A stretch of 54,267 nt of DNA, filler included, from Sluysia triapertura (Eukaryota): NCBI GenBank assembly GCA_046118255.1. It is 4 parts of 4 records of this genome, joined end to end, with 100 filler letters (N's around TTAATTAATTAA, not from the genome) between each part and the next. Parts side by side here need not be neighbours in the genome. Positions count along the whole stretch, not along the records: positions 11,703 to 25,447 come from JBJNIA010022622.1; 3 more parts are not named here. One strand, written 5' to 3'. The number at the start of each line of letters is the position of its first letter. Positions within the stretch are counted from its first letter, which is position 1. The position numbers were made by a program, and so were the translations under genes. The notes under the pieces are model-generated. The model was not told the DNA's origin and did not search any database. It worked only from the letters and a program-made list of their open reading frames with translations. Positions 241-49,300 of this stretch are shown here, piece after piece.

Positions 241-1289
241 TTTTGTCAAACATTTTTAAATCAAAAAAGAAGAAAGACATGTGATATCTAATTATTTGGA
301 TAATAGTTAAAAAGCAATGGAAACAAATGGGCCGTCCTAATCGGCAGAAAAGGAGTTTAATAAGGTATACAAAAAAATACAACATTGTCTACAACTCGCA
401 CAATGTCAGATTTAGAATATTTAAAAGAATATTTAAATAATGCCTTTATTGGATAATAAATCAAAGTTAGTTGAATTTATACATATTTCGGAAAGCCCTC
501 TTATCGACTACACTCCTATTCACTTTGTTACTAGTTTCTCAGTAATTTCACTGTGATTCTTCCTTAACACTTTCATCGTATACTTTGATCTAATATCCCA
601 CGCAATATTTATAATATTGTCAAAAAACTTCCTATTACGAACATACTCTATAATAATAAACGTAGAATACATTTTAAAAGTTTGAAACTATGTAATAATT
701 GCTGGGTGTTTTCTTAATAAAAGAACTTAACTCGCAGCAAAATAAATTCTTATTTCGAGTACGTTTACAGTATACGACTTACTAATGGCGCACCTGTAAA
801 AATTACGTGAAAACAAATTTACAGATTAACTATATAAAAATACTCTTTGCCTTAGCTTAAACAAAAATCGTCGATTATGTCAGCAGATAACTGAATAACT
901 TATAAAATATAAAGATAGCAACGACCAACGCGGGTAACAATATTCGTATAAAAACATGTTACTCTTTTACCTTTAAAACTTCGATTATTTATTAAGTCTT
1001 ACTATAATAATCGTGAATTTTACGAGTTTGCGCGTGATATTTTATAGAAACCATCAATAAAAGTTAGTCTTTTGATTCTCTAAAGAATTAATCAAAGTAT
1101 TTCCAATAAAAAAGTTATCTAGTTTTAAATATCCTGCAATATAAAGAAGGTAAGTTTGACTTATGTTAACGTACAAAATTACAATAAGTTAAAACTCAAA
1201 AATGTCTGAATTTTTTTACTACAAATTTAATAAACTTAAAATAAAACTATAAATTTATAAAAATGAGAACACAAATAACTTAATTTAAA

Positions 1290-1785: not shown

Positions 1786-3958
1786 GTAGGCTAAAGAAAT
1801 AATATGTTAAGAAAATAGTTAAATTAATAAAGCTCGTGTATTAAGGTTAAAGCAAAATGAATTTGTTTTATTTAGTTTTGATTATATTTATTATCATCTT
1901 TATTTATTATAATTATTATTAATCGGAATTATCACCATTTTTATTATCATTATTAGTTTTTTAATTACTTTATTGTCATTATAATCATTTTATCACTCAA
2001 CAACTAATTTTAATATATTTCCCGCCATCGATAGACAGATCGACTAAACCTAAATCAACATTTCATGTTTGCTGTCTACCGATGACAGATGCTAATCCAA
2101 ATCATTTCCAGACTGTGGCCTGATTGGATGCCCAGTTAATCATAATCATGTGCAAACCATCTCAGATCGTATTGGACGTCCCAATCACAGAGCAAAAATA
2201 AAGTGTAAAAGTTAGTACGCAAATAATAATTATAATTACAAGAAATTGAAGTTACAATACGTAAAAAGTTGATTACAATTTAGACGTTGAGAAACATTAT
2301 TGGATTTTAATAACTATTTTGACTAAAACAAAAAATTTTCTCAGTGAGACAAATAAAAACAGAAAAGAAACATTTTCGATTTAAAAATTTTTAAGCAGTG
2401 ACAAATAAAGAATTAAATCTTATTGAATTTTATTAGTATAAAGTCTTTAACAGCATCGTATACAAACAAAAAAGACAATAATATTGGTCCTAATAAACGA
2501 AAATTTGATAACGTTACAATGATAACAATGGCAGTCAAAATATCGGAAATCTTGGATCGTATTTCCAAATTGAAATGGTCGAAAACGGCTCATATCCGAC
2601 TATTGTAATTCCGTTATTAATAAATCATAAGGATCTGAAATTGGTGTTAAAATAATTGTTCCATGTGGTATGCCCTTTGTACAGCAATGTTTTATAAATT
2701 TATGTAACAATTTTAGTTCCCACTATTCAATTAGCGATTCAAAATTATGCTAAACTAATAAAAATAAACAAAGGATCAAAATTAAAAGTAATGTATTCAA
2801 CTAGAGATATAGATATGACCTATGAATTAACAGAACTTACTATTTTAGATGTACACATCTTAGTAGCGTCCACTACTCGAATTTCAATGGTCCTTTATCA
2901 TACAAATCAAATTAACGAAATATTTTATTATATAAAACAATTGGTAATTGAGGAAACAGATAAGATGATGTGTTATAAATTAGAGGAACAGATCCAAAAA
3001 TTTATAAAAGGTTTACTGAAACTAAGTAATAAATTATGTAAAAGAAATGAAAAGGTACTTAAACAATTTCAATTTTATTCAACGTGTCGTGACAATGTTA
3101 AAATGTATTATCAGATTTTGTTTAGTCACTTGCAACTTTTTTATATCTCGTCAAAGAATAGTTTCTCAACACAGTTAAAACTTAATGTCCGGATTACATC
3201 GCATAACACTGAAGGTACAGTCACTATTAAAGCAATATTTGGAATATTAGTGCATGATATCATGTACTTAAAGTTTTAACCTCTATAGAGTTTAAGTAAA
3301 ATTGGTATTGAAACGACTCCAACTTCACAATCGGATCCGAGTATGTACGAACAAAAACGAAGATCAAATCGAATTCCTATAAAATCTAGTAAAACACAAG
3401 TTGATTCTACCGTTCAGTTGTACGTATAAACTTTTCAATTACAAAATTCAGACATTGTGAAAGTAAATTTTATTTATTATTTAACCAACATAAATTTAAT
3501 AATCTTTTTATTTATCTAATACAATGGCAGATACGAAAAATAGATAATAATCTTTTTATGGCACATGCGAAAAATAGCAGACTCGACAATAAATAAATTT
3601 AGACTGCTTTATTTTCTTCTAGTTTCATTGTATCATGAAAATTTAAAATTAACCATCACTAAAAGAATGATAGTGAAAGATGATTTTTCTTTAAAATTTT
3701 ATATACTAGTTAAGAATTTACAATAATAGACATAACTTTTTAAATAAAAGTCCATAACATAATCTATTTAATCTTTTGTAATACTATTAATAATAAACCA
3801 TTACACCTATTGATAAATATTTTATAATTGACCTTAAGGGCCAACTGAAAGACGATGATTTTATATTTTAAAATGATTTTATGATTGATCTTAATGACCA
3901 ACCGAAAATTACGTGAATATTTTAACTCTGAGTTTTCCATCTATATGAAACAAACTTA

Positions 3959-5371
3959 CTGATTCAATTAATAAATTAATTTTCGAGATCAGGAAGTGCT
4001 TTTCGATGTAATTTGATTGATCAGTTTGCGGAGAATTGGAAGTTGCAATCTCTCTTGTCGTATTCGCGGGATATAACGCTGCTGGAGTACAGAGAATAAC
4101 AAAAAAACGGTGGATGGAATTGATAATTTTTGAATTAATGGTGTCTATTACAACAATTATGGCTTCTTCAATTTGAAAATTTCATACAAATGGCGTCTGT
4201 ACTCCTTTGTTTTTCTTTATATACGCATGTTAAAATTACTTCGTTAAAACACTTCCTTGTTCTGGAACATTCTTTTTAATTTATAATTTTTTAAATAATA
4301 ATAATAATTTTATTTTTTTAATTTTTAATATTTTTTTACAATTTTTTAAAATATTAAATACCATTAAAACATAAAATAAAAAATTTTTACACCTTTACAT
4401 GATATATTAAAAATATATCTTACTTCTGTTAATTCTTTCTTTGCAGTTGTCACAATATTGCTAGTGGTGATGGTAGTAGTAGCACTACTTGTTGATGTAG
4501 CTTGAGGTTTATTAATTGGATGTTCCGAATAGTAGCTCTTAAAAGATGAAATTTGAGGGACCAATAAACTATCAGAAGTACTTATTACAAAATTAGCACA
4601 GGGATTGGCAGTGTTGTTGCTACTGCCCGAAGACGATAGCAGCATGCTGTTACGCATACCGTAATTGATTGATTCCAATGTGCTTGTATTCGTCGATTTA
4701 TCCTGATCAAAATACAGTTTAAATAAACATAACACACCAACATTATTTAATATTCGAAAGGAAGTTATTAAAACATCGCTTGAAAAATATAAATATATTC
4801 ATTAAGATTAATAAATTTTAATAAAATTTTAGTATTTTCTCGTGATTTATCTCGAGAAATAGTAATAATTTGTCATTCTAGCATAGCAACAAGCGATAAG
4901 TAACCCCATTGTTTTATTTTTATTAACAGCAATTACTTCATGTTTCACTTTCAAGAGCTATTTCAAACGTTTTTCCACGAAACATCAATTTAATTACAAT
5001 TATTCTCCAACAGACAGTACCGTAACTAGACCTCTGCAAGATATTAAATTCGGGCCCCTCTATAGCACCAAACAAAATAATCATATTTGTAACGAACTAT
5101 ATATATGTTCAAGCTCCGAACCGCAATTAAATACGTATTAAAAAATTTTTTTCGATGCGTCATATCATTCTTAACTTGAACAGAAATGAAATTTGTTACA
5201 ACGTGTTACACGTTATTGTTAGACTTCATAAAATTGAATGGCCAGGAATCGAACCCGGGCCTTTTGCTGCGCAGTTCGGTGCTCTATCCACAGAGCTATC
5301 AGCCACGCCTAAGAATTTTATACCAAATTCATTAATACCAAATGGCACTTTAGGCCTGTATCCCATTATTA

Positions 5372-10659: not shown

Positions 10660-11519
10660 ATGACAATGAATGACGAGAAAGATAGCTATAACCGTCACTA
10701 TTTAACTATTTAAAATGTGGATTTAAAATGGTTAAATTCGTTATTCAAATAGATACAATCGAAAACTACAATGAGTATTTATGATTTAACAATTTAAATA
10801 TTACTACTTTTAAATTGTTTTTTTTAAATAGATTTTAAGACTGATTTTACAAGGCTGTTTAAAATGTCTTTGTGAAAAAAAATTGATATTTTTAGTACTA
10901 TTTTATTATGCTATTTAAAATGCACCAGATGTTGGGACACACAAAACAATTAATGATTAATTTTAATAAACTGTTTCTGACTAATTCGGAAGCAGTTTTA
11001 AAATTGTACATTTCATAGAAATTGTGATACGTTAGCTTTGTTAAAAAAATGTTAGAATTATTTGAGATTGTGTCATTAACTGTGATGTAACAAGTTTATG
11101 CTTACTTATATTACCTTTTCTTGCGTAGCATTACATAATAGAAATAACTTTAATTATATTAATATTTAAGATTTAAGTTGTACATGCTTTTTATAAAAAA
11201 AAGTTTTAAATTTATTATTATTTCATTTTATTATTGAGATATTAATTTTAATTTAATTATGACCTTGACATTATTCAGTCACCATCAAGAACGTTATGTT
11301 ACTATTATTATAATTCAATATTCTATTATAAACTTTGTATTATAACCAATCAGTTAAACAGGCTCAAATCTGATGCTGTTTATTATAAAATTATGCATCA
11401 CCACGATACGTGTTTTGTTTTTCACCCTTTTTATAGCTACTTAAGACTAGAATTAATAATTGAAAAATTAATTAATTATTATCATTAAATCTGTATTTCC
11501 TAACATTTATACTGTAGAG

Positions 11520-21924: not shown

Positions 21925-22530
21925 CTGAATTAGTTTAAAACTGTAAACTGCAAGTTTAAGACATTTAGATGAAGTTAGGAAAGTAGGTCGACATCATTTA
22001 TATAAAGATAGTGTTGATGTTATGTACTGACAACGTTCATATATTGTTAATGATGTTAAATTTCTACTCCGAAATCTTCTATGATGAAGTAATGTTCATG
22101 AATGAATTCTATACTGATGTTCGCAATCGACATATGTACGATTGTGTTTTGTCTTATGTGATATAAACTCGTGATCGTAAGAGAATCTCTTAATATCACA
22201 TTAAATTTTACTATTATATTTTTAGTTTATTGTAGTATATCTAAATAATTTGATGGGTTTTGATCGATTTAGTTGCACATTTGTATTGACCGGTTTTAAT
22301 TGATTTAATAAATTTTAGTGAATAATTATTTTAGTTTAGCCACACCTGTTTTAACTAAATATCACCTACTGAGCAAGTAAATTAAAAGTTTTAATTGATA
22401 ATTAATCAAATATAAAATCATTAAATTGTTATTAGGATATTAATAGCTAAATAGACCCGTTACTTTTTGATCATATAAAATAGCATTCAAACGTAACTGT
22501 CAAGGAATTTTGTTTATTCTAGGATTCTAG

Positions 22531-22620
22531 AAATCCTAATAACACGTCCTTTAAAAATAAACGTAAATAGTGTTTAATAGGCAGACTGACTCTTAGATAT
22601 TTTGCAAATATAAGTTTAGG
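22531..22620 (+). ncRNA. Unclassified structured repeat family, copy A (terminal module only)
   Basis: aaatcctaataacacgtc...gtgtttaataggcagactgactcttagatattttg aligns with the terminal modules of copies B, C and D. Confidence 0.6.
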
Positions 22621-22933
22621 TTAAAGAAAGAAATGTGAATTATAATTGGATGAAGTTTCTTTTTAAAAATATTGTTAAGATATGTTTTATTGCTTAATTT
22701 ATGTCATTTAAATTTTATTTTAATATTATTAATTTTATTATATCAAATTTTTTAAAAAATTAATAAAATATTTAGGAATAATAATTAAAATAAAATAAAA
22801 ATATTTAGTAATTAAAAATCAAGTTAAATAAAATTATTAAAAAATTAAGAAAATATTAATTAAATATTCAGAAATAATAAATTTAGAATAAAGAATTTGT
22901 TTAAAATAATAAAATTTAATTAAAAGATTTTAA

Positions 22934-23555
22934 ATGGACGCCGATGGAAGAAAATTGTTATAATAGAGGTAAGGAAAATATCAAATTCATAACAAATTTT
23001 TAGAGTAATTTGGAAAAATAATTTTAACAAGGTTCCAGCACTCGATTATAAAAAATGAATCAAAATTCCATGATAATAAAGTAATTTTTTATTTATAAGT
23101 TTTTAACGTATTCATCCTAAGTGAAAATACAAAAATCCGACTTAAACTATCATTTATTTTTGTACCAACACCTTAAAGAGGGTTGGGTAATTTGTATCTA
23201 AAATCTTAATAATCAATTACGATTTGAATTATTTTAAATTCGTTATTGTTATTATACCTATTTTTGCACGTTGTACTATAATTTTTTTAACATTAAATAA
23301 TACATTAGTATCGAGTTTAATTTAGTTATTTCACTTCTAAATATTAGACTGTTTTCTAGCAACACCTTAATAAAGAGGTTGTGTAATTTAGTAAAATCCT
23401 AAAATTAAAATCTACTTGAGCTTATTAAGTTGTATTTTCCTTAGGCTCAAAATATTATAAATTTAGGTTATAAAATCCTAATGATACGTCTCCAACAGTG
23501 GTATAAAACGTATATATTAGGTGGACCGATCCCTCAGGTAAGATATTAAAAACAC
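22934..23555 (+). ncRNA. Unclassified structured repeat family, copy B
   Basis: CAACACCTTAA..GGTTG hairpins at 23166 and 23360; terminal module 23472-23545. Confidence 0.65.
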
Positions 23556-24559
23556 TAGCAATATAAATTTTAAATAAAATAGACGTTTTAGCAACGATTT
23601 TATTTTTCGTTAAAGTTTATGTGGTGGTTTCATTTATAGTTTATAATATTATTATTTTATACTTAGTTTGTGATATCGGTATTAAATTTCAAATTATAAA
23701 TGCAACATTTTACATTGTAAATGTCAGGCCAAATCAAAGTACTGATAAATACTTTGCTGATAAATAATTTTCTGCGCTAGTGCATCTCATTGAAATGATA
23801 ATAATGATAATGATAATAATAATAATAAATGATATATTAATTTATAGAACACTAATATATGCTATGAAAAAGTAATCAATAGTGCTATAATACATCATTC
23901 ATTATAATATTTCTGAAATAGAATTATTTCACAATCTTCAAGTGTTTTGATACTCTACGATAGCTAGGTGTACAATTATTATTGTTTATTCTCTACAAAT
24001 GTTATACATTAAATAAATGTATTCAAGATATATATTATAAAACATATTCGAGAATTATATTGATTTTGAGTAATATTCTCGCTTTTATTTGTTTGATTCA
24101 TTAAGATAAGATATGATCTGCGACCTTATTTTTATGCGGAAAATTATCCTTGTTGATTGGTATAGTAGTAATTAGAATTTTCGAATTTTCTGTATAAAAT
24201 TGAGTACAATATATCATTATTAAAATCTACATAAAGGAAGAGTTATTCTGGTAGTAACCTTATTAATAAATCTGGGAAACACTTTAATATTATCTATATA
24301 ATTATTAACTATAAGCAACCCAAAAAACGTAAACAAATTGTGCTTTGTAAGTAGTCTTTAAATTATGAAACGCATCAATAATTTCAAAATTTATTATTTG
24401 TACTATAATATGATAAATACTTTTGTAATTGTACAATTAGATTAATGTGACAAAGCACAGAATATTCAAACCGCCTTCATTTTTTGTGTAAAATTTTTAT
24501 ATTGTATTATTATATTTTAATATGACGGCATACAAATCAAAACCGATTGAATTGCAATA

Positions 24560-25158
24560 CTGGGAAAATATTTGGATAAATATTTAATATTTAATAAAAG
24601 CTTACGTGACTGATGAAATTATCATTACAAAAGCAAAGGAATTTGGATAAAGACTAAATGTTGATAACGTGCTATTCAGCAAAGGATGGTTCTGTAGATT
24701 CAAAAATCGATTTAATCTGAAATTGAAAGTTCTCCATGGAGTAGCAAATTCAATGAATGATGTTGGTGTTTCAACCCATAGAAAAAAATGGTTGAAAAAT
24801 TGGCAGGAATGGACCAGAATTTATACTCAATATGGATGAAATTGGACCTTTTTTCAAGCATTTCCTACAAGAACGATTTCATCAAGTGAAAGAAAAGGCA
24901 TAAAACAATCTAAAGTTATGTTCAAATGCTAGTGGATCAATTAAAGTTACACCTTTTGTTATTGGACATAGCATGAAACCAAGATGTTTTAAATTTTATA
25001 TACTTCTTGATAAAGCTCCAAGCCATAGCTTGAAGAAATGTTTTCAGAACGTTGAAATTATAATGCTTCCGAACTCAACTGCTCATTTTCTACTCATGAA
25101 GGCAGGTATAATAAAAAATTTTAAGCATTATTACAGAAAAAAGTTAGCAGTCGCTTGA
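24560..25158 (+). mobile_element. pogo/Tigger (CENP-B-like) transposase pseudogene, internally deleted
   Basis: 'FSKGWFCRFKNRFNLKLKVLHG', 'NMDEIG', 'NASGSIKVTPFVIGHSMKPRCFK', 'ILLDKAPSH', 'AGIIKNFKHYYRKKL', with frameshifts and stops. Confidence 0.9.
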
Positions 25159-25378
25159 TCAAACAAAAGCCTTTGTTGTTAATCTTAAGAATCTTAATTT
25201 GGCCACCATTGTATATAATTTATGATTTTATTGTTTCAACCTCATAGAATCAACCAAAAACATTCTACACAAATCATTGACATTCTTCGTATCTTTCGAT
25301 ATATTCAGAACATCAGTTTATCATATGTGCACGAAAAATTTCAGTATGTGTTCCAGTCTTATTATTCTCTTTTATTAA

Positions 25379-25447
25379 CCCCTTAACGCGCAAGCCCGAG
25401 TGTCACTCGGGCACATGTTACTGGCAAAATTGTGCATGCCCGAGTGT
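25379..25447 (+). mobile_element. piggyBac-like element end running into an assembly gap
   Basis: TTAA|CCCCTT terminus with subterminal repeats GCCCGAGTG...ACTCGGGC. Confidence 0.55.
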
Positions 25448-27189
25448 NNNNNNNNNNNNNNNNNNNNNNNNNNNNNNNNNNNNNNNNNNNNTTAATTAAT
25501 TAANNNNNNNNNNNNNNNNNNNNNNNNNNNNNNNNNNNNNNNNNNNNGTATTTAGTGAATAAATGTTGTGAATTGTTTGAGCTGGATGTAGAAGTTTATT
25601 AAGTTGGAAATGGTTGAGATATAAATTGATTTGTTGGTGTATATAAGTTAGTGAGGTGTTATGATCGTCAAATATTATTTTATGAGGTTTGTGATGTTGT
25701 GATTCTGAATTGTATTTTAATGAATTGTATTGTATTTTAATGAGATTAGATTTATAATTATTAGGTTTACATTTAAGTTATAGATGTTGACCACTACATT
25801 TTGAATAAGTTATAAATATTTCCAACTTGACAATTTCGATTTTGTTACACAAGTTTCATATTTGATTTTGAATTAATTTGATTGATATAAGTTGACATTT
25901 TGCATAAACCTTCGACCTGCGTAAAATGTTTTATTCGAAATTCTTGTTTTTGGAATATCATACAATATCGTAAAATAAATTAGAATTACAAGTAAATAAA
26001 TATGTCCAGAACCTTTTAAGAATGTTTTAATTAAATATCTACAAAAAATATGCGGAATTGAATATATGCATATCGCCCTCAAATATTATTTAACATTTAA
26101 ATATGAGTTATGCGTTTCAATTTCCTGTTATGTATTATTAAATGGAACCTGAGAAAAAGGATCTGTAGCAGGAATATCATATTAAATGCTTTCAAGAGCC
26201 ACAAATAAATTTTTTATTAAATATTAAATAATGTATTATTAAATTTATTAAATAATACATATTGTGATAACCACATTACTAAATAATAAGAAATTTAATG
26301 ATAGAAAATAGTAATAAAAACATCACTAATAATTCTATTTATATTTTTAGTACACTATTAATAATTTTAACTATATTTTATTTTAATTTCATATAAAAAT
26401 TTTAACTAATTGAAATAATTTATGAATTTTTTTGAATTTATAACGATGACAATTTTTATTTTTCAATTTATTTCTGTTAATATAAAATTTATAATTCCAT
26501 GACAATTTTATTTTTATCGATATTTATGGTTATACAACGGACACCTATATTAATTTAAGAAGTAAAGTAATTTATCAAAAAAAGATAACATCGATTTCAA
26601 GAGTAACAGATTAAATACAAATCTTTTCGAAGAACACTTTTACATACCGAAGTTATATTCGAAATATCGATGGAAGCTCTTCATATCTTGGTATTGTATC
26701 TTTATGAACGATTTAATCAAATTACTTATTTCATTTCTCTGCAATGTAGTAAGTTTTTATTAAATAGGAATTTTCACCTTCTTAAACTGTTTACTTAAAC
26801 TATAGATAATTTTTAAAAACTAGTACCAAACTGTGATTAAAATATAATTCAATATTAGGTAATCATCCTAATATTTTAAATTTATAGCCATAAGATATTG
26901 ATTGTAGCTTTTAATCTAGTTGATTAATTGTTCTTTGGATTTATCTTAAAATCATTTACCATTTGCAACTAAGATTATATATATATATATATGATTCTAT
27001 AAATATTTTATATTTTGTAAATTTTTTATTCTTATTACAATTAAACTTTAAAAAATAAAAAATATTAAATAAATTAAAAAAAATTTGTAAAATAAAAAAT
27101 ATTAAAAAAATATTAAATATTAAATAAATTTAATAGAGTTTAATAAAATTGATTTTTTAAATTTTGTTTTAACTAATTATTCTAACAAA

Positions 27190-27805
27190 ATGAAGAATCA
27201 GTAGAAATATGTAAGCTTAATTTAATTTTGAACGCAATGATTTTTCAGAAATTAATAAGGGATTTCTTGGAAAATTTTTTAGAATTGAAATTTTTGGAAC
27301 ATTCATCTTATTCATTTTTGGTTCTCCATGCACAAATAATTCACCGTAAGGGAATAATAAAATACAGGCAATATAATTTTTTCTTTTTATGCAACACCTT
27401 AAGAATGGTTGCGAAACTTATTACTAAACTTAAATAACAGCCAACCGTGGTTGTGCTTGTTAATAAAATTGTTATCATTATAATTTTTTATAACCCATTA
27501 AACTCTTTAAGCATTCTTAGTTGTAAATAATATACCTTACGTGAATTAATTTGTCTTTATTTACTAGAAGGGTTTAACAAATTTATTAAATTGATTTTTA
27601 AAGCAACACCTTAAGAATGGTTGTGAATTTTAACCTAATTAAATAATTTCCAGTAAGCAACTAATTCAGATATACGCATTATAAAGTGTAAGTTGACCTT
27701 AAAGTTTAAAAGTAATTAAAATCCTAATAGCACGTCTTCAACAGTAGTATAAACCATGTATATTAGGCGGACTGACTCTTTAAATATTTTGTAAGATTAA
27801 GTTCT
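27190..27805 (+). ncRNA. Unclassified structured repeat family, copy C
   Basis: GCAACACCTTAAGAATGGTTG occurs twice (27391, 27603), plus CCAACCGTGGTTG (27441) and the terminal module 27718-27803. Confidence 0.65.
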
Positions 27806-28459
27806 TTAATAATACACTTACAATATATAAAAACTTTGCAATTAACCAAAAAGTTTGTTATAAAGTAATTTATAAATCTTATTGCCCTAAAGTCTTATTA
27901 TTAGACCATACAGCGAGAAAATATCCTTATTAAATAAAACCATTTTTTAGATAATCGTACAGGATCATCATGTAATACGTAAAACGTGTCTTGTAGCCGA
28001 ACCCAGAGATTGAAAATTTATTATTCATTCCATTTCTGCATGTTTTAAATTAAGTCATATTTTATCCGAAAAATTTACTACTTTAAACTTTGAATTATAA
28101 TTTAAAGCCGCCTTATGGCCTGGCGAAACTTTTATTAATAAACTGAATACCGTGATCTCCCCCTGGCATTATAATTATTAATTATAATTATTCTTTAATC
28201 ATTTAATTAAAACTACACGTTAACTTCTACCTACGAGATAACTCGCAGTTGGCAGCGAACGTGTTAATTAAGGTCATAAATTTGAAAAAAATAAAGCATC
28301 AATGTATTTGTTAAACCTCATCATTTATCAATAAGAAACTATACTGGTTAATACGCTGATTAAAAATCGCATGACAATCACAAATTGTAGCAAATCTTTG
28401 ACAAATTACTATTATGATAGTGACGTGATTGATCTTGGACTTTTATTATAATCTAAAAA

Positions 28460-29204: not shown

Positions 29205-31899
29205 TGTAATAACATCTATTTAAGATTTCAAATTTTAAATACAAATTTATTATAATGAAAAAAATCTCTTTAGCTTCTTAAAAACGTCACTTATCTTTTT
29301 TAAACACAGTATTTAAACAAAGTATTTAAAGACAAAGGTAGATGCCAATTGCCACATAGCAAGTTAAGATCATTCAGATCACAACGAATATTGAATGTTA
29401 AGGAGGATGTAAAATGTTTAAGACTTATGTGATTTAAATTGAGGATTTTATTATTATGTTATGAGAGAAAGTTTTGTTATAAGCTGATTTTGTAATACAA
29501 TCATATGTAATGAGTTGGACAATCATATAAGTCACCAGCGGACAAATCATTCCATTACTTGGTGGCTAAAATCATAAGGTAATTATGATAAAGCTCGTGA
29601 TATCTGTTCGCAGATTTAATTCAACTAATATTATAATTTAGTTAATTTACGCATCTTTTATTACCTTATATTATAACTAGAATGTCATTGTATGTTATGT
29701 CGTCGTATTACAAAGAAATATTGTGCAACAGTGTTTCCTATAGTCTTCGTCTTCGTTTCCGTTATTTGTATTTCTTATTTGATTCTTCATCTTCACCATT
29801 GCCTTCTTGCTCACATGCAGAACTCCGAAAAAAATCATTCTTTATCATGTAGCGATAATTCCAATAAAGAAAGCACCGGCATTGATATTTATGGGTTAGT
29901 AAGACCTGTACTGAATTTACCGTCAGGTTTTACTAAGATGCACAAACAAAGTGACTTAAGTATCACAAATAGAAGTATTAAAATTTACAACCCTTTTCTT
30001 AAGAAGGTCTTTCCTAAAAACAAGTGTTAATAAATTTAATCAACATATAGACTTAATTTGTACATTATTTTCGTCGTTATTTTAGAAGCATGCATCATCC
30101 ACAAATTCGAACAAATGTCAAAACTTAAATCTTTTTTATGTTTCTCTGGATAAATTCCTTTCTGAAGGAACTATCGTCCTTTTTGAAAATTCTTTGCTTA
30201 AGCTCAATAAGTTGAAGAGTGAGCTTGAGACTAATCTCATCTTTTCTTTGTTAACAGATCCCGCATTACCTTAAATGGCTTCGACACTTTCTATGTAACT
30301 GTTGTTCTGGAGTGGTAAATGTAACACTTATTATTAAGGGGACATCCCATTTTCTGCTGGTGCAAGATTCCATCTTTCCTCATTGTCAGAATAAATTACC
30401 AAAGCAGAATAACCAGAATGATACAATAATAATTATTATTAATACTAATTAAACTTAATAAAATTAAAACACTTAATTGAAATTAATAAAATTGAATATT
30501 TTCTTTTAGATCAAAAGTATTTGACATGTTTGCTGCCAGCTACGAGTTACTTCATAAGTATAAGTTTGTTTTTGTGTCGCTCGGCAGATAATTAATAAAA
30601 TATTTAACTAATTGAAAAAATTGATAAAAAAGCAATATTTACGTTTATTTTGCTAGATTTGTCGATCATAAATATTGATTTTGTTAACATGTAACTTAGT
30701 AATATTTATTAATCAATTATAATTTTACTTGTTTAATCTGTATAAAAGCTAAAATAAAAGCACTCAAATCACAAGTGAAAATTCTTACGGAAATATAAAA
30801 AATTTCTTCGATCCATTTCTTCTAAGAGCACAGTCCAATACGACTTACGTTCTATTTTGCTTCTAGTAATAACTGTGAAAGTATAGTGAAAAATATACGT
30901 AAATGAAAGTGGAGATTTGAGTTTAAGAAACAGTAAAAGTGTGAAAGGGAAAAGTAATAAATAATAAAGATAATATAATAATAATAATTCATAAGTATAA
31001 GAATAAATTAATGCGAAGACTAACGTTGTAATACGTTAATCAATTATATAAGATAGTTTAAATAATATCAATTAAAAATACAAATAAATAGTTTAATAAA
31101 TTTTAAAGTTCAAGTCGGATTTAAATTAATATTTTGATTTCAATGTAAGTTAAGTCTGCAATATAAAAGCACATTTAGTAGAAAAGACGGATTTTATGTA
31201 ACTTCAACTCAAGCAATTATACTAAACAATTATACAAGTAACGGTAACAATATAACGCACATCTTCAACATTTTCTGATAGACTCAAATTTCCACAACCG
31301 ATATAAATTTAGTTTAATAATCCAATTTTATTATGGTGGATTCCAAATGCCCAAAATCATTCATACTTTGTATGTTTATCATGTATTTCTAATATATACT
31401 GAATTCAATTAACCATAAACAAATCAATTAAAAGGATATTATATGGCAACACGAAGTTATCGATACAATCAACTAAACTAGAAATATATGTTATTACTGA
31501 GATTTGGTCGATCTATTATTACCAAATTACTTGATCGTAAGCTGTAAAGGATTGTTTGAATTCAAATTGCATCAAGTTAAAATAACCTAGGAATTAACGA
31601 ATAGATTTTCATATACAGTATTATTGGATTAAAAGTAAGCCTTTTATATTCTTCGATTATTCTAATAACCTAGAAATAAATTCTCATTAGTGATGTTATA
31701 GAAGAAATCCTATAGAAAATAATTCACTTATTATATGAAAAATTTTAAAGTTAAATTAATATTACAAAATACAAGTGTGATTTTAAATTATACAATAATA
31801 ATCCACGAAATATTCGTGTTTAATTCTTACCTTTAGAAAATTCTCAAAATCCGAAATGCAAAATCAATAAAACATTCGCCAGTCACATCATTTACTTTG

Positions 31900-32950: not shown

Positions 32951-33344
32951 ACTTTGGGAGATGAATTGTTTGGATGTGTCGATAACATAATCATGCTAGA
33001 CTTTAACTCTGATTATATGTGATGTCATCATCTTTTAATTATAATTAGTTGTATAATTCTCTATTTTATCTCGTTCAGTTTATGTTCGTTTTAAAATTGG
33101 TGACTAATTTTTCCAAAGGAGAAAGTTACATGCCAGTAAGGCTAACGTGATTAAATAAATCATGATATAACCGCGATAATAATATTTAAACATAACGTGA
33201 TAATAATAAGTTAAATTAAATAATAATAATTTATATTGAAATTAGATAATGAAAAATAATAATATTAAATAATTAATAATAAATTAATTTAAAAAAATAA
33301 TAATAATTCATAGAATATTGAAGTTAAAATTATTGTTTATTTCT

Positions 33345-34115
33345 AAACGGAAATTCAAACAATAACAGATGGTAAAAAGCTAATATAAATAATGATCGTA
33401 TGATTAATAACTACCACAACTGGTTTATCAAATATTTAGCTCAATTTTTGAATAATTGGGAAAACGTCCATAATCTTGAAAACATACCAACAGTACTTAT
33501 GTTCTGGAAATAATAATACTTGAAAATTAAATCACGCCAACTTTTTGATTTAAGTTTTGTATCTCTAAGAGGTACTTAAAATCAACGTAATATCTTTTTA
33601 TAAACTTCATCTGACCATTTTAAAGAGGTCAATAAAATATAACTAAAATTTGATTTATCAATTAAAGTTTTAACTTTAATCGAGCAAAATTATTAAACGC
33701 TTTATTATTATCTTGTACACCTTAGTTTGTTAAAAATTATTTTTTATTATTCTAATACGTATTGCCATGAGCGTTATTTAATATTTTGAGATAAAATCAA
33801 AATCCCATAGTTTTAAAATCATAAAATAATTACATTATCTGTTTTAAAGGGTTGTTTTAAATAAACCCATAAATTATACTTTGTCAGTCCTGTTTCATAT
33901 AAGGACTTAAATTACTTTATAAATAAACTAAAACACAAAAATAAAATTTTTAATAGAATTCGAGAACTATTGAAGGAATTAGCAAAATAATAATTAAATA
34001 GTGCAATTAGTTTTAAGTGACCTTCTTAACTTTTACATTTTCTTTATGAACCCTGTGAACAAGCCCTTAAGTAATTCTTGGATCACAAGCGGACTTACCG
34101 AACTTTTAAGTTTAA
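33345..34115 (+). ncRNA. Divergent member (copy F) of the structured repeat family
   Basis: A-rich leader, serial short hairpins (tgacc..ggtca, gggtt..aaccc, agtcc..ggact) and terminal TGTGA-CAAG/CTTG-TCACA-AGCGGACTTA with the same topology as copies B-D. Confidence 0.4.
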
Positions 34116-35078
34116 TTCAAAGAAACTACAATAATATTGATCAAATGAATTTAACAGCAAACTCACAAGATAATCGATACCCAAATTTGATTAATCAAAT
34201 AATTCGGCAATCAATTCATTATTTAAATTAAATAATTTAATTTAAACAATTTCTGCAAGATACAATTTACTTCCTTTTAAAGTTAGGTGAATTTTAATGT
34301 ATATTTATTTTTAGAACCTACTAAGAACCCACTGAGAATACCAGAGCTCTAAGTTGTTTCATTTAGTTTTTCAAGTTTTGATTAATTTATATTTTTAATT
34401 TTTTTATATATTAATCATGATTCTTAGAGTACAAAAAATCGAGAAGCGTTTTACAGAATTACTGAAAATGCAATTAGAGAATATCCTGAAGTTTCGTTTA
34501 TAAATTGCATTCACACGACTTTTTTTAAATCTAACAAACATTTTAATAAAATAATATAAATTAATTTACACTTAGATAGATCACGTTTCAGAAATTTAAT
34601 TACTATTTAAACAAGAATTCACCCCTTTTTGATATTTTTGATTAATTGATGTACTAAAGAGAAATTTCGCAGTTTTATTTTTAGCTTATCATGTTAATAC
34701 TTCCTGAACCATATTATTGAAATGATTGATATTAAGAATATAATTAGCACTAGGACACATCTTCAAACTCATCACTTTAAAACTATTTTAAATATTACTG
34801 AATTTCTCACTTAACTTATTATCTCTTAAATTTGTAAATAGTGTAACAATTATTACATAAAGGTAACTTTATTATAAATGTAACCGTTATTTTTATTTTA
34901 AAATTTCTATTTTTCTCTGCATTAAAAAAAGAGAGCATTTGTTTAGTTTTCTGATGTATTGAGTGCATCAATTTTATTAATTTGGAAATAAAATTGAAAA
35001 GGTTAATCAGCGGCGCACTATTAAATTAAATTATGTTAATTTAAAATTGAATTCGTCTAATTAAATATTCAAAAATAC

Positions 35079-36482: not shown

Positions 36483-36785
36483 ACCCAATTATTAAAACAA
36501 ACAAAAATACAAATTGAATTGAATACAAAATAGAATTAGAATATGCATTTAAAAAATTAAATTAATAATATATAATTTAATACACGCTAATATCTGCAAT
36601 ACATTAAGTATTCAAAATCATATACATTTTAAACATTAAAGTTATAATAATTTAATAAATTAAGAATTAATTTTAAAAATTATTTAAATACAAAATTAAG
36701 GCTGTCATAATTACCTATATCATTATAAATTTTTTTTTAAATATTTTTAATATTTGTTTTAATAATAACTTCAGTATAATTTCAA
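36483..36785. promoter_or_regulatory. Short, extremely AT-rich divergent intergenic region (likely bidirectional promoter)
   Basis: About 300 bp between the cactin ATG (36482, -) and the RPB11 ATG (36786, +). Confidence 0.65.
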
Positions 36786-38117: not shown

Positions 38118-38183
38118 AAGGTAATTATTTTATAAGTGATTTTAATTGATTTTAAATAATAAAGGTGTTTTTAACTAAAACTC

Positions 38184-38830
38184 AACTTACCTACAAAATA
38201 TCTAAGGAGTTGGTCTACCCAATATATACGATTTATACCACTATTGAAGACGTACTATTAGGATTTTTATAACTTAACTTAATTAACTTTAGATAAACAC
38301 TTTGCTTATGACTATGTCTAATTACTTAGGACTCCTTAATTAATTTATGATACAACTCTTTACGAGGTGTTGTTTAATTTAAATTATATATTTTATAATT
38401 ACACAACCCGTATTAAGTTGTTGCTTTGAAATATATTAATCTTTTAAAAGATTACGCAAACCGTGTATTAAGGTGTTGCTTAACAAAACGAATTTTAAAA
38501 GTTTATTAAATTAAAAGACTCTAATACTCTTAAAGTGTATTAACGACAAAGAAAAAACTAATCAAAAAAATCTATAATAACGATAAAAGTTTAGTTAACT
38601 ACTCAACCTCGGTTGGCAGTTTCAGAAGATTTTAAAATAAGTTTCGCAGCCCGTATTAAGGACTTTCATCAAAATAAAAATTATTTTAAGTCAATTTTAC
38701 TATTCCCTTATTAAGGTGAATAGATAAACCCTAACAATAAAAAACTTTATAAAAATTTGATCTAAAAACTTGTGATTTTATGTTAAAAAGCTTACCTATT
38801 TTATAAAATTGATTAACTCCATGTGTCTTC
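38184..38830 (-). ncRNA. Unclassified structured repeat family, copy D
   Basis: The reverse complement carries five CAAC..GTTG-type hairpins (38353-38665) and the terminal module 38184-38268. Confidence 0.65.
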
Positions 38831-38880
38831 TATTTATTAAATTGATTCATTTAAAGAAAAATAAAGAAATAATTTAATTT

Positions 38881-39308
38881 TTGATTTTATATGTAGGTTT
38901 TCAAAGTTGTAAATCTTATCACTCCCAAGCTTCTGGTCTCACTGCCCATAATTGTAGACATAAATTAAATGATCCAACACGTTTTTACTGTTCTAAAAAC
39001 CATAGAGGAAAAACTTGTCCGAATAAAGAAAACGAACAGTTATACAGGTGTGTAAAATGTCATAATGACTTTAATCATCCAGCTAATTCATATAAATCTC
39101 CAAAATATATGGAAATTTTAAAAGATAGGAAAAATTATGAATTTCAATCAAAAAACTAAGATTGTATAAAAAGTCTGAAAAAAATACAAAAAAGGATTCT
39201 ATTAAATTTGGTATTCAAAATGTTTGGTCTATTCAAAATAAAGCTATGGAAATTACTGAGATCATTTATGAAAATAACATTGATATATTTTGTTTAATAG
39301 AAACTTGG
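38881..39308 (+). mobile_element. LINE fragment: ORF1 zinc-knuckle end plus ORF2 APE endonuclease start, running into a gap
   Basis: 'CSKNHRGKTC...RCVKC...HPANSYKSPKY' followed by 'IKFGIQNVWSIQNK...IIYENNIDIFCLIETW'. Confidence 0.85.
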
Positions 39309-40972
39309 NNNNNNNNNNNNNNNNNNNNNNNNNNNNNNNNNNNNNNNNNNNNTTAATTAATTAANNNNNNNNNNNNNNNNNNNNNNNNNNNNNNNNNNNN
39401 NNNNNNNNGTTTATTTTACTTCTGAGTACAAGGATTTGACTACAGTCTCTTGGCATTGATGGCACATTATTGTATTATCATCTATTAGTGCTGTATTTAG
39501 TCTCGAATCAATACCTCTGTAATTGTGGGTCACAATTTCATTTAATATTGAATTTCATTCTAATTTTGCACTGGATTTACTTCTACGGTCCCCCTGTGAT
39601 ATATGAAATATACATATGGCGACGTATTCTTAGGATTTTTTGTGCAAATTTATATCTGAAGAAGATCGTATGTAATTTTTTGCTAATTGTGTTTTCTTTC
39701 TTTCACTTATTTAGCTTAAATTAATGACAAACAAAAACCTTATTTTACAAACTTATTATAACTTCTACTCGTTAACTTTTAGGTTATTCAACGAAAACTG
39801 CCAAAGTATATTCTTATTGCACGGTCAAACATAAACTTTTTACTATAAACGTTTTAATATAACTTTTTATATTTTAAAAAGAGTTTATCTCTAGCTTAAA
39901 TTAGAGTTGAAACATGGAACAATCTAACAATTTTAAATTTCTTAGTCACATGTTTAATAAGATCAACTTATGTCATTACACTGTGCTTGTGTTAAATTCT
40001 ATTAAAATATGTATCATCTAAAAAAATTACCCCAGTAAATGAATTGCATTTTTATAAATTTAATAAAGACATGTAAATGATATTTCATGAAAATTAGAAA
40101 ATTTATTTTTTACACTTATTACAAATAATATAGTGTATATTGTACATCGTACAGTAATGACCTTTAGTCTTGGTATTTTTAATCGCTTCAATAAGAAAAT
40201 ATCTTAATCTTGTCTGGTCATGTTTTCAATATCATTTGCAGTATTGCAAAATGTTAAAAATAGATGTTCGACTTTATACCCGCTGCGTCCAGCAGTTTAA
40301 GTCCTTCGACGAACTGAGTAGTTTTGCATAGTTGATCAAAATATAGTATTGCATAGCGTCTGCTTTTTTAGTTTCTGGACAGACGATTGGGTATAAAACT
40401 AATTTTTATCAAGGAAGATAGATGGGTTAATGGGACGATTAATATTTTTTCTCGAAGTACCAACCATAGTCATATTACATTTCGAGAGCGTTTTTGATGT
40501 AGTTGTGCTGATGTTCCATGGATTGGTTTCGATAAATTCCCAAAAATCAGATAATCTGAATTTGAAGTATTAATTTAATTTCATATTTTTCCAGTTAGTT
40601 GGGAATAGCCATTGTAAACTTACATTTGTCCCGGAATTTTAATTCACAAAACTGTGTTGAATTTATTTATCGATTTTATTTTGATATATTAATTTTTTTG
40701 TTCACCAATCCAAATTGTGCTTTAATAAATAGTAATCAAACTAAAAATAGATATTTTGATCGAAAGACAAACTCGGTAATATTGTCAAATATAAGTAAAT
40801 AATGGTGAATTTCACATTTTCTACCTTGTCATATCCATTGTGTTTGTAATGCTTTTGTAATACGTTTTTATTTTTGTCAGAATTTTTGAAGTAATATATA
40901 ATGGATAAACATACGAAAGACAGACTTACGTTTTACTGTAATTGATATTCGAACATTATTTTCTGAATTTAG

Positions 40973-43217: not shown

Positions 43218-43261
43218 GTTTTTAAATTCTTTTTCGACATAATTATTTTTATCGCTTAAGA

Positions 43262-43914: not shown

Positions 43915-46261
43915 CTCAGTTTTAATCCCAGTCAGTAAAGCGTCCGTTATACTTCCAATAACGGTAATAAAGTCGAATATATTCCAATAATCCATAAAAT
44001 AATTCTAATAAATAAATGAATAAAATTAATTATTTTCACAGATTAAACTAATAAATTTAATGAAATTATTTATCCCCTGTTTCAAAACTATAGGACAGCC
44101 CCAATTTTTGTTGTATATACAAACACAATTTATATTATAACAAATCAACAATACTTTTTGATAAATAAAACACGAATAAACTAATACTTATTTATAGTTT
44201 CCAATTTTAGTACACTTTTTATTACTATATTGCATTTAGTTAAATAAATTTCGTTTCAAAAGTATAGGACACATTATACAAACTTTTTATTTAAAAGATT
44301 CTAAAACGTATTGTACAAAATTAGTATTTTATTGATGTTCCTGAGTTTTCCAATACCTCTAAACACATTTTGCTAATCAGATTAATCAATGTATTTACAC
44401 TTTTTATTTCAATATTTTCCCAATTATCCAATATTGCATTTTTAACTCAGATATATTGTTATACTGTTTTCCTTGATTGATAATTGAGACCATAAATTTT
44501 CTATTGTTTTCATCTTTCTGATCACTCTAACACTTTTAATCCATATTGATTTAACTAATTAAGTCTTGCTTAGATCGGTGACAAGTAGCGTTATCCTTCT
44601 GAAAGATGACAGAAAGTTTGACATGCGGAACTACTACTTCTTTTATCAAATCATAATACTTATCTCCATTAAGAGTTGATGGAACCACACGTAAAGCTAG
44701 CTTTTTATCACAAATTATGATTACCCATACCATAACAAATTCTCTTAGAAAATATTTCTTTTGAATCCTTTTATAATTTCCAATAGTATTTTAAACCATC
44801 AGGATCATCCAAATATTCTCATCTGAGAACATTATCGTGGTCCAGTCAGTATGATTATTAATATAATATTCTGATTCTTTCGAACTCACAAAAATATTTT
44901 AAAATAGGACTTGAAAAGATTATTTTATGAGTTTCTTTGAAAAGAATGACAACCATTTTAAATTCTATTTCAATCTAATTCACTTATATTTTTTGGCCTA
45001 TTTAAAATAGCTTTTGAAACGGGCACTGACGATTAATAAACAAATTATATAATAAATGTATATAGATTATCAACTCAATATTAGAGTTCTAAGAAACTTT
45101 AATTAAAATTAATTTTAATGAATTTTAACGACCTGTTGAAAAATAGTCGGTGAAAGTGAAAAGTAAAATAATTTAAGTGATATTTTATATATCGTGTGTA
45201 AGGTTACAAAAACTTATAAATAAAAATATATCTGGCAATAAATAAATGATCAGATTCGTTTATAACAATAAACGAATAACTGGGTTAATTTATGATAGAA
45301 AATGATCTCAATATTGCTCCAAAATTATCAAAATAAATAGTTCGATTGAATAAATTTATAATATTCAAATAATACTTTTGCCAAAATTGTTAATTTTTGA
45401 TCGGGATTTTCGTAATAATAATTTTATTATTAATTATTACTATTACCATATCATTGTTATTTTGTGCATTATTATTGCAAGATTTTTATGATAAATTAAA
45501 CTTAAACTTACAAATTATCTAGAGGCTTTAGTCCACTTAATAAGCACGGTTTATGTCCATTAAGATGAGGTCATATTAGTGTTTTTTGTAGAATGTCAGA
45601 AAACAATCAAAGAAAACTCAACCTTGTAAATTATCGAGCAATCAATACGTACTTAATAAAATTTGTAATTTAAACTAGCCGTTATAGTTTAATTGATTTT
45701 AAAGAGTTACAAATTGAGCTAGGCTTCTTAGGGTCAGAAGTTTATATGAATGATTAAATAAGAATTAAATAAATGCAAATTCCTAAAACCTATTAGTAAA
45801 AGTCAAAATGACAATTAAATCTAATATACATAACTAAATTAATTAATTATGCTTAAGAGATATAATCCCTTAGTGTTTAAGATTTTAAAATTGATTTTGA
45901 CCTAGCCTTTATGGTCTAGAGTACATAAAAATAAATCTAAGTCGTATTTTAGAATTCAACTTTTTAAGTTAGAATTAAAATAATCTTACTTTGATCATAA
46001 ATCGCCAAAAATCCACTGATGATTAATTTTTATTTGTGTAATGGCGTCCGAATTTCATTATGTATTTATTATTGGTTATTTTTCTTTTTTGTATTAATTG
46101 GTTGATTTAAACAAAAATTATTTTATTTTAAAATTTTACATTTATTTGTTAGTTTTACTTTTAATTAATTATTTATTTTTATTATTAAATTTTAATATAA
46201 TACAAATATAATTTTATCAATACACAATTATAATTAAAATTGTAACACAATTAATACTTAA

Positions 46262-46306
<45 letters not shown>

Positions 46307-49300
46307 CATTAGATATTTATTTTAAAAATATTTATAGGCAATACTATATCAAACCTTAGGATTTAAACCTATCATTTTCAAAATACATTCCAATGTAAAC
46401 AATGTAATAAATCCATAATTCAAATATTGAAGAGCTTCGTGATAATTGCTGTACGATAACGATTTCTCAAGCTGTAATTTAATATATTCTTCATTGTCTA
46501 ATTTTGATGGATCTAATTCTTTTGAATAATACTAAAACAATATTAGGAAAATTAAATTTAATAACAATTTAACTATTTATGTTAGTAAGTAAAATATTTA
46601 AAACTGAAAATTGGATTATAAATTATAAAAATCGCACTTACTCGAAGCATCAAAACAATTGTGTTTAATGAAATCATTATTAAAATAAATATTTCAAATG
46701 GTGTAGATACAACCAAACACCATATACGATATTGAAGTGAAGGTTTATTTGATGGTACGAAGCGTATTCTTGGTTGTGCTTGAACAGCAAAATCTATACA
46801 TAGTTTTTGATTTTTATCTATACCTTGATCACGAAATGATTTTTGACCTTCTTCTTGAAATGTGATAATAATCAAAGCTACGAATATATTGACAAAAAAG
46901 AATGGGAATATAATGAAAAATATTATATAAAACACTGCCATTTCACTTCGGTAATTATATATTGGTCCTTTGTTGATCATGGTAGCATCCATAGAGTGGC
47001 GAAGAACACTTTAATAATAATAATAATTATAATAATAATGATAATAATGTCAAGTTGTCATCACAAACATATAAAATCTTATTTTTCAAAAAAGAAAATT
47101 GGCTTCTAAAAATACAGTAGAAGCTTCTAGAATATTCTAGAACATTCAATCGAATCTCATTGGCTGATGACTAGTACATAAACTAGCATCAATTAAATGA
47201 GAATCGCCATTTTGAAGCTAGTCGCCATTTGCAATTTTTGTTTGGTAAAATTTTGCGGCGATATTTTTGGAGCAATTGTTAAACTCAAATTTTGGGAAAT
47301 ATCCGCACAGTCACAACTATTTAATTTAATTTCATTTGTTGGAAATTGATGTAATTTTAGAATTTGAGATTATGAAATCAATGTAATTTTTTAAGTGCCG
47401 ATACATTTAGGAGTTAATACACACTCAAATTGTTAATACACGCTCTCGGAGCTTTAATCCTTTTTACTGTCTTCTGTTTTTTATTATTACTCCAAGATCT
47501 TTTGGTATTTCGTGAATAAAGTTGATATTGTATAGGATATAGAATGATGTTATTAAAATTTCATCATTTGAGCATTTGTTAAAGACCCTAAACAACAGAA
47601 CATTTATTTTCAGATAAAATATTAGCTTATTTAGTTACAGGAACGCCCTCTCTGCTCAAAAATATTTTGTACTAGGTGAAGTATTAGCAAAAAACCACCA
47701 TAATAATGATGATAATAATAGTAACATATATTAATTTATACATTACCAATATCTACTACAAAATAAATACTTAAAAGAAATGTATTAAAACATTCATAAT
47801 TTTCCAGTATTTTGACACATTCTGGGAAATGTTTGTATATTTTGAAACATAACCAATTATTTATCATATCCCTAACTTCTTCTACAGATCTCGGATTTTT
47901 CTCTTACATTTATTGATAATAAACTTCAATTTCCACCCTTTTTTATATAAGTGAAGAATATTATGTCTCATTTTATTATATCTACTTTTCTTATTATAAT
48001 ATCACCACCACCATCATCATTATTATTATTATTATTTTGGAATATGAATCATATTTATACATTTATCATCTTTAATAAATGTCAAGGTTATTCGTCATTT
48101 GAATTAAGCAATTACAGTTATTGTACTTTAACATTATTTGTAGGATATATTTGAGCTAAGTATGAAATATAATATGATCATTTTAATACAGCAAGTTCTG
48201 TGAAATTGAACATGAGTAATCAACCAAAGTTATTATATCGTTCTGGTATGGTTAGTATATACTTGTCATTATTATCGATTACTGTATAAAACCAAAACTA
48301 AAACTTAAATTATTTATCTTAACGAATTATTATTTTTTGAATAATTTTTTATTATTAAAAAATCGATAATTTTGAATTATTATTTTATTCATTTACAGTT
48401 TGTAGTTTATAACATATTATTACTAACGACTGATTTAATACTAACTTCAGTTTTGCATTTTCAAGTGTAATTAGTATAAAGTAATTTTTAATTATAATAA
48501 TCATAATGAATATTAAAATAATAATTAATTTCGAATCAGTGTTTAATTCAGTATTGTGTTTGAAGTTTAAAATTTGTACGAAATTTATAATTAGCTGTTG
48601 GAAATCAGAAAATTATAAAATATTTAAATTATTACATTGTTAAAATAGTATTAATTATAATTGAAGTTTCTTTTGAAATAATTACAATTTCAGAACCATA
48701 AAATAAATAAGACCAAAATAAACATCACTTAGTGAAGCAATTCTCAAATAAGATTGGAATATCACAAGGATCCAATTACAATGAAGTTAATATTAATCAA
48801 TTATTAACATCGTTAGTACTTATTACTTTTATTATGATATCAAAAAATTAAATACCCAATGCAACAAATGCATCTTTTGTAATAAATTTTCTAATGTTTG
48901 ATATTTTCTTTAGTATTCAAAATACTAATATCAATAATTCTTAATAAAGTTTTGAAACAAAAATCGAACAAAGTACATTTAATAATTAATTTAGTTATTT
49001 TGACACATTGAACCATTCTTGAGCACTACCGTAACTGAAACTGATAGTGTAATCAGGAATAATATTGGCGATTTTTCGCTTTAGTTGTTAATCAGTTCAG
49101 GAAGTTGTACATAGGAGAATACTAATGATGTAAATTATTAATTATACATTAAAATGTAAATTTTATCTACTTATTATATTAATCAAATAAAATTTATCAA
49201 AATTAACAAACTCAAGCCATCCTTCAGTAGTAGTGACTGTGAACAAAGTGACAAAACTGTATAAAATATTATCAAAATGAAAACAAAAACGCATCCAATT

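Follow-up and report, generated by a model that had tools for sequence, protein, structure and literature searches.

A dispersed, lineage-restricted family of units with putative splice sites and a predicted 3′ RNA module in Sluysia triapertura

Host genes and copies of the family

The stretch of Sluysia triapertura DNA analysed here (the window, 54,267 nt, about 26% GC) is broken up by N-runs and encodes exons of a Cav2 channel, an SLC4 transporter, cactin, RPB11, a CXC-domain gene and a furin-like gene. The Cav2 exon was 51-66% identical to the 120 best matches listed, none of which was close. The sole match of SLC4 was Schmidtea slc4a-3, and the two best matches of cactin reached 57-59% identity. 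The host would accordingly be a divergent invertebrate with possible flatworm affinity. Host introns that could be read from the sequence (n = 4) were 31-36 nt long.

A dispersed family of units is present among these genes. A 3′ module of ~100 nt was located by HMM and covariance model at 22.5k(+), 23.5k(+), 27.7k(+), 38.2k(-) and 45.5k(-), and with a further copy at 39.6k(-) the module occurs six times in 54 kb, or about once per 9 kb, as part of four full units and as two module-only copies (Table 1). We name copies by position (23k, 27k, 38k(-) and 45k(-) for the full units) and give all coordinates along the joined window; 23k is the copy that the first-pass annotation of this DNA had described at 22700..23560. 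A profile built from the 23k, 27k and 38k modules only recovered those of 22.5k (E 4.4e-7), 45k (E 6.1e-5) and 39.6k(-) (E 3.7e-4) and had no match in the reversed window. A degenerate pattern derived from five copies matched the window five times, with 0.00 matches expected. Pattern scans had 0 matches in metagenome, viral and prokaryote contig collections, which contain little animal DNA and hence say little about range, and no description of the element was found in the partial literature library that was searched.

All copies are diverged. Identity between modules was 0.58-0.77 (z 5.5-18.9), with no pair above 77% over the whole module segment, and identity between hairpin units was 0.59-0.73. 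The 3′ end is the best conserved portion, and similarity between copies was absent 100 nt downstream of the units. The 5′ extent varies from full units through a short leader to the module only. The hairpins of 45k were missed by a model of 23k, 27k and 38k, and this copy was identified by its module and a GGACGCC motif. It lies in sense orientation inside a 2.35-kb Cav2 intron (46352-44004), its leader beginning 16 nt past a Cav2 donor, while 22.5k and 23k have antisense orientation with respect to SLC4 and lie upstream of one of its internal exons, at 21925. Both module-only copies sit head-to-tail just upstream of a full unit (22.5k before 23k, 39.6k before 38k; an N-run makes the latter distance uncertain), an arrangement that the first-pass annotation had overlooked. 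Neither is nearest to its own downstream neighbour: local scores of the 22.5k module were 82 to 23k, 95 to 27k and 113 to 38k, and those of the 39.6k module 55 to 38k and 71 to 23k. The module-only copies are therefore not part of young pLTR pairs.

Weaker candidates are included in Table 1. A further candidate unit at 10828-11262(-), upstream of the CXC exons, is moderately AT-rich, has a possible 35-nt GT..AG micro-intron and gave a weak hairpin-unit match (E 0.0034; 0.0025-1.7 across leave-one-out profiles). Another weak hairpin match was seen at 29976-30026(-).

Table 1. Positions of units, their predicted parts, weaker candidates and predicted host micro-introns in the window
Feature	Position	Strand	Remarks
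Module-only copy 22.5k	22520..22616	+	Head-to-tail, ~320 nt upstream of 23k; GCAAA replaces second GTAAG; loop-tail helix absent
23k A/T leader	22660..22935	+	8% GC; putative Pol II promoter region
23k predicted exon 1	22936..22968	+	Begins GGACGCC; ATG opens 9-codon dead-end frame once spliced
23k predicted micro-intron	22969..23003	+	35 nt, GTAAG...TTTTTAG
23k predicted exon 2	23004..23537	+	534 nt, non-coding; carries hairpin units and 3′ module
23k hairpin unit 1	23105..23207	+	Terminates in CAACACC-TTAA..GGTTG hairpin
23k hairpin unit 2	23300..23400	+	Internal duplicate of unit 1; spacing 194 (212 in 27k)
23k 3′ module	23477..23530	+	11-bp stem with 3′-side bulge, 23477-23521
23k loop hexamer GTGGTA	23498-23503	+	Can pair with tail ACCGAT 23525-23530, bulging A23529
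23k end	23535..23562	+	Acceptor-like CAG, second donor GTAAG 23538, short conserved tail; inter-copy similarity stops about here
Full unit 27k	26967..27830	+	Leader, exon 1, micro-intron 27211-27248, exon 2 27249-27790, module 27710-27803, donor 27791 (exons and intron predicted)
Full unit 38k	38160..38890	-	Short leader, micro-intron 38795-38762, exon 2 38761-38191, module 38277-38180, donor 38190 (exon and intron predicted)
Module-only copy 39.6k	39543..39667	-	Co-oriented with 38k, ~730 nt upstream across N-run; GCAAA replaces second GTAAG
Full unit 45k	45460..46336	-	Leader 46336-46092, GGACGCC 46049, donor 45989, divergent hairpins, module 45598-45499, donor 45511
Candidate divergent unit (33k)	33176..34136	+	Leader, hairpins (33.6k), weak module 34025-34136 (CM E 0.04; 0.6-1.3 leave-one-out); hairpins lost in leave-one-out
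Candidate unit (4k)	3800..4400	-	Leader, AGACGCC, one hairpin (3.85k); hairpin lost in leave-one-out
Candidate weak module 0.8k	705..830	-	CM E 0.072; lost in leave-one-out
Predicted host micro-introns	35646-35681, 36842-36874, 36965-36995, 9658-9688	-, +, +, -	Cactin, RPB11, CXC-domain gene; 31-36 nt, weak donors

Leader, splice signals and predicted transcripts

An A/T leader had been reported ahead of the copies. It was found before 23k, 27k and 45k; 38k has only ~100 nt of AT-rich sequence, and the 200 nt preceding it hold 30-40% GC. The A-skew of the leader on the element strand was borne out (+0.09 to +0.18). Segments with at most 8 G+C per 100 nt number seven in the window. Five of them (145-277 nt) precede 23k, 27k, 45k and the 33k and 4k candidates, and the remaining two are (AAT)n microsatellites. 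None comes after the module of a full unit. The leaders could be aligned by composition only (z <= -0.2). They seem to resemble a host promoter in size and composition, since the divergent promoter gap between cactin and RPB11 measures 298 bp at 13% GC, with a minimum of 9 G+C per 100 nt. GGACGCC is common to 23k (22936) and 45k (46049(-)), as noted earlier, and three of the four GACGCC matches in the window stand directly downstream of a leader; this motif may resemble a YY1-type downstream element. In three units an ATG lies 21-27 nt ahead of the first donor.

The two donor-like sites of the unit were confirmed in all four full units. The first GTAAG (22969, 27211, 38795(-) and 45989(-)) lies at -509, -513, -534 and -410 from the module anchor, and the second (23538, 27791, 38190(-) and 45511(-)) at +60, +67, +71 and +68. 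As GTAAG occurs 85 times on both strands of the window (0.78 per kb-strand), the fixed position of the donor is not due to chance. A pyrimidine-rich AG follows within 28-40 nt in only 8 of these 85 cases, three of which are the first donors of 23k (35 nt), 27k (38 nt) and 38k (34 nt). The first GTAAG thus appears to open a micro-intron of host type, predicted at 34-38 nt in three of the four full units, a feature new relative to the first-pass annotation. The first donor of 45k has no close pyrimidine-rich acceptor, and this copy is ~100 nt shorter in that region. The micro-introns are similar between copies (z 4-5) while the ~100 nt after them show no similarity (z <= 1.2), a contrast that suggests selection on splicing, either in the copies themselves or in their masters.

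These data bear on the arrangement proposed before, a mini-exon followed by a structured intron. Its donors stand, but the anatomy looks different, given the close acceptor 34-38 nt from the first donor in three of four units. For the same reason, hairpins and module are most simply placed in a second exon of 534-571 nt, where they are more likely to reside than in an intron; a long intron would survive only as an alternative splice to the YAG of the module. The second exon ends at a donor without a conserved partner: similarity stops 30-45 nt past the second donor, and no conserved acceptor was found downstream of it. Alignment of the 3′ ends matched CAG|GTAAG of 23k with TAG-7 nt-GTAAG in 45k, where 27k reads TAA in place of TAG, and with TAG-11 nt-GTAAG in 38k; by this correspondence the putative second donor is homologous across the four full units. 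A U-rich ATWTTT(G) immediately precedes it in 27k, 38k and 45k and is missing from 23k, which has a 7-nt deletion relative to 27k and 45k. In addition, four of the five strong modules carry a YAG 7-9 nt after a branch-point-like A (27k has TAA), which had been overlooked before. This spacing resembles that of group II introns.

The predicted spliced RNAs are 567-606 nt long. In agreement with the first-pass annotation, they lack a long ORF: first-ATG peptides have 9, 4 and 8 aa and the longest ATG ORFs 12-19 aa, and coding potential was rejected.

RNA structure of the hairpins and the 3′ module

Hairpin units of ~100 nt recur at a spacing of 194-212 nt in 23k and 27k and as three to four repeats in 38k. 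Their consensus stem has 5 bp, with a two-sided change in one pair. Folding of the unit bodies gave z-scores on the element strand of -3.5 for 23k, -2.0 for 38k, -2.1 for 45k and +0.9 for 27k, and of -2.5, -0.2, -0.6 and +1.1, respectively, on the opposite strand; five other tested regions ranged from -1.0 to -0.1. G-U-type changes together with lower energies favour the element strand in three of the four full units. None of the five strong modules folds better than its own shuffles (z -0.9 to +0.6). Their modelled 11-bp stem was paired in 89% of cells, with two-sided change in one pair and one-sided change in three, and is moderately supported.

A pseudoknot had been described earlier. The helix between loop and tail of the module that would form it was paired in 70% of cells, and one of its four pairs showed two-sided change; one column reads A-U, G-C or G-U in all five modules. 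The covariation score of 0.227 was matched by 18 of 500 shuffles, the shuffle control being lenient. In 23k, 27k and 38k the helix comprises 5 bp with a bulged A, and shuffled loops equalled it in 12-19% of trials (per-copy P 0.12-0.19), while it is not formed in 45k, 22.5k and 39.6k (shuffle P 0.69-0.87). On these values the pseudoknot is weakly supported and, as a model, plausible. Since no more than 3-4 nt separate the stem from the tail, a classical stacked H-type geometry is unlikely; the loop, 22 nt long, would need to fold back along the stem. An alternative GUC/GAC pairing of loop and tail was near-invariant over its 3 bp and uninformative, and was set aside.

The loop hexamer (GURGUA) reads GUAGUA in 27k and GUGGUA in 23k and 38k. 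According to PMC13019295, GUAGUA is the branch-point recognition sequence of U2 snRNA and bulges the branch A; similarly, the stem-loop of the unit offers GUAGUA or GUGGUA, which can pair with a branch-point-like sequence and bulge an A. The chance of finding GTRGTA in such a loop is ~0.7%, a value that applies to a motif noticed after the fact in three copies that share ancestry. Unlike in the U2 helix, both strands lie in cis in one RNA, only 5 bp can form, and pairing is degenerate in 45k, 22.5k and 39.6k. Moreover, the tails of 23k and 38k have a C where U2 pairing wants U and their loops carry the matching G, so that any loop-tail pairing would be in cis. Rfam gave no U2 match for the units, and U6-like catalytic parts were not identified. 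We regard it as a long shot that the 3′ module is a self-contained U2 mimic whose GURGUA loop pairs in cis with the branch point of its own RNA and bulges the branch A 7-9 nt before YAG, so that the unit brings along its branch helix. Such a module might switch splicing, or it might serve within a lariat-forming ribozyme or a spliceosome-assisted mobile intron from which a hairpin-rich lariat or circle of ~560-600 nt would be released and propagate. If true, this would be an animal mobile RNA halfway between group II and spliceosomal introns, and a cis branch helix that proved genuine and functional would make the unit a testable model of an intron bearing its own U2 function.

Relation to known families and possible origins

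A gathering scan of the whole window with Rfam 15 returned one tRNA and no family matching the units. Scans at E<=10 gave one match in 22300-28000 and six in 33000-46500, all far below gathering. The family is lineage-restricted, its architecture is sharper than first described and its RNA motif is absent from Rfam; its functional steps we infer from sequence. The hammerhead core is absent from all copies, the two core-like matches in the window both lying outside the elements. A hammerhead-core-like string at 15762(-) coincides with an apparent exon/intron junction, likely by chance. Twister, pistol, hatchet, hairpin, HDV-like and lariat-capping ribozymes, as well as H/ACA boxes, SECIS and spliced-leader RNA, were dismissed, with no fit to their consensus features and no Rfam match. 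The 5′ twisters of Perere-3 described in PMC8501958 do not fit the 3′ module.

The suggested link to an RT/GIY-YIG, integrase or recombinase ORF was not found among 306 of the 432 window frames of at least 38 aa, and these frames showed no other retro-enzyme family either. Target-site duplications, also envisaged before, were not evident at the four units: the best direct repeats of 7-9 nt were equalled by 7-70% of random pairs, and age could have erased them. The best inverted matches at these units had 7-10 nt, and the single one below 5% of background was an (AAT)n stretch. Visual inspection had suggested TGC...GCA ends and AT target repeats, which a boundary test did not support.

The first-pass annotation had left the choice between spliced ncRNA genes and an intron-retaining retroelement. 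Both readings stay in play, and we tentatively prefer, at a probability of about 0.4, that the units are a non-autonomous, intron-retaining, Penelope-like mobile element, transcribed by Pol II and copied, intron included, by a Penelope-type reverse transcriptase provided in trans. This reading is favoured by the density of the copies, their occurrence in both orientations in introns, the 3′-anchored conservation, the variable 5′ extent, the partial tandems and the retention of the predicted 5′ intron. The leader would drive a capped transcript from about GGACGCC. Expression would yield an RNA of about 570-610 nt that has lost the micro-intron, while copying would use a template that is unspliced or antisense. 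The repeated hairpins may serve as protein-binding or packaging sites, and the 3′ module with the partnerless second donor could set the 3′ end and the site recognised for copying. The loop-tail helix might mask the branch-point-like A, leaving the adjacent YAG normally unused. If copying began at the 3′ end and often stopped short of the 5′ end, module-only and short-leader copies would result, and the upstream leader might be carried along if the template started further upstream by read-through, by analogy with Penelope tandems.

Penelope-like elements (PLEs) are described in PMC8557442 and PMC3846280 as showing 5′ truncation, partial tandems, a TSS and 5′-UTR intron in the pLTR and intron retention, and as including non-autonomous families and clades without hammerheads. 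The units share with non-autonomous PLEs of the pLTR type in these sources (e.g. Chlamys/MRC1) a short predicted 5′ exon, a predicted intron kept in dispersed copies, 3′-anchored similarity, 5′-truncated copies and a 3′-only copy ahead of a fuller one. They differ in having, within the window, no linked RT/GIY-YIG, hammerhead, TSD or inverted partner, in tandem modules that are not sisters, in a promoter-like leader that lies wholly upstream, and in a new 3′ motif. Like the non-LTR (animal) retrozymes of bioRxiv 10.64898/2026.07.22.740005, the units are protein-less, dispersed, putatively PLE-linked and possibly form circular RNA; retrozymes are, however, defined there by type I hammerheads in tandem units, which are absent here, whereas the present units carry splice signals and do not form homogeneous tandems. 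The unit appears to behave like a putative PLE derivative and falls outside the definition of retrozymes.

Several observations count against the Penelope-like reading. The window holds no young copies, TSDs or sister tandems, whereas near-identical copies are usual in active TE families. The upstream leader would be left behind by an RNA that begins at GGACGCC, and the lack of a segment of at most 8% GC after the module argues against a unit-length tandem template. Intact splice ends at this divergence may fit selection in place equally well. A mobile family would amount to a non-autonomous element that keeps its intron, lacks hammerheads and bears a new 3′ RNA motif, and it would be well suited to studying which features Penelope-type enzymes recognise and for what reason introns are kept.

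The main rival is a host-maintained, multi-copy family of Pol II ncRNA genes, a reading that is possible yet rather unlikely. Each gene would have its own promoter and micro-intron and produce a structured RNA of ~550-600 nt. The 3′ end of this RNA at the second donor would arise either by spliceosomal cleavage limited to the first step, the route taken in fungal telomerase RNA, or by back-splicing to a circle of 534-571 nt, and copies would spread by duplication at the DNA level. Leaders that match the host promoter lie upstream, where DNA duplication would carry them, and all copies are distinct yet keep donors, acceptor and stem, with no young copies, TSDs or sister tandems. The U-rich stretch right before the second donor in 27k, 38k and 45k and the missing conserved acceptor beyond it also speak for such RNAs. 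PMC4299874 places the 5′ splice site of fission-yeast TER directly downstream of an Sm/LSm site, and three of the four full units likewise present a pseudoknot-like element, a U-rich stretch and then a 5′ splice site. Unlike this RNA, the units are multi-copy, no template was identified in them and no conserved strong branch site lies downstream. Their U-stretch is not a clean Sm consensus and is missing from 23k. The density of one module per 9 kb and the presence within host introns in either orientation are TE-like, the module-only and short-leader copies look truncated, and Rfam has no match. If host-maintained, the units would be long ncRNA genes with a promoter each, in a family of unusual density.

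Modest folding support (27k at z +0.9; modules no better than shuffles) would be explained if the hairpins and the module were not RNA structures at all but palindromic DNA sites for a transposase. The units would then be an internally deleted DNA transposon, MITE-like or Helentron-like, that has retained at its left end the promoter of the transposase together with the start codon and first intron; this would account for promoter and intron without special retro-mechanics and for the ATG 21-27 nt before the donor in three units, and Tc1/pogo remnants are present in the window. We nevertheless consider it distinctly unlikely: no TIR or TSD was found at the four units tested, substitutions in the stem preserve pairs of G-U type on one strand, the intact splice sites are unneeded yet persist beside unalignable neighbours, and the units showed no similarity to the Tc1/pogo remnants. 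A TRIM or solo LTR is very improbable. Here the module would be the core of an LTR, with TATAAA in the loop, a start ~30 nt later and a donor for read-through splicing, and 22.5k with 23k and 39.6k with 38k would be old two-LTR elements. TATAAA is present in the loop of three of six modules, and module-body-module arrangements occur twice. The ta-TRIMs of taeniid tapeworms undergo splicing, and the solo LTRs that they leave behind splice into their neighbours (PMC4558846); the units resemble them as small, non-coding elements of a worm genome with putative cis-splicing. However, the paired modules are not sisters, a polypurine tract is missing ahead of the downstream module, where purine runs containing a G reach 3-6 nt at most, and no TSD of 4-5 bp (4 bp in ta-TRIMs) is evident; 27k and 45k consist of body and module without an upstream module, and the 45k leader stands 16 nt after the Cav2 donor. 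Should neither transcription nor structure hold, the family would be an old lineage-specific repeat of modest interest.

Other repeats were seen in the window. Broken pogo/Tc1-type transposase remnants were identified by Pfam matches at 24651-25155(+) and 51157-51332(-) and by the look of the translation at 7815-8339(-) and 49650-49961(-). A tRNA-like sequence with unassignable anticodon at 10484-10575(-) has a second copy at 5214-5278 that is 80% identical and shares the 3′ flank, possibly the head of a tRNA-derived SINE. Two dispersed repeats of 88% identity each were found at 3-176 and 44157-44330 and at 37988-38124 and 47079-47215, the first copy of the latter adjoining the 3′ end of 38k. 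Finally, an intron-less, degenerate DEAD-box helicase fragment at 2698-3276(+) may be a retrocopy.
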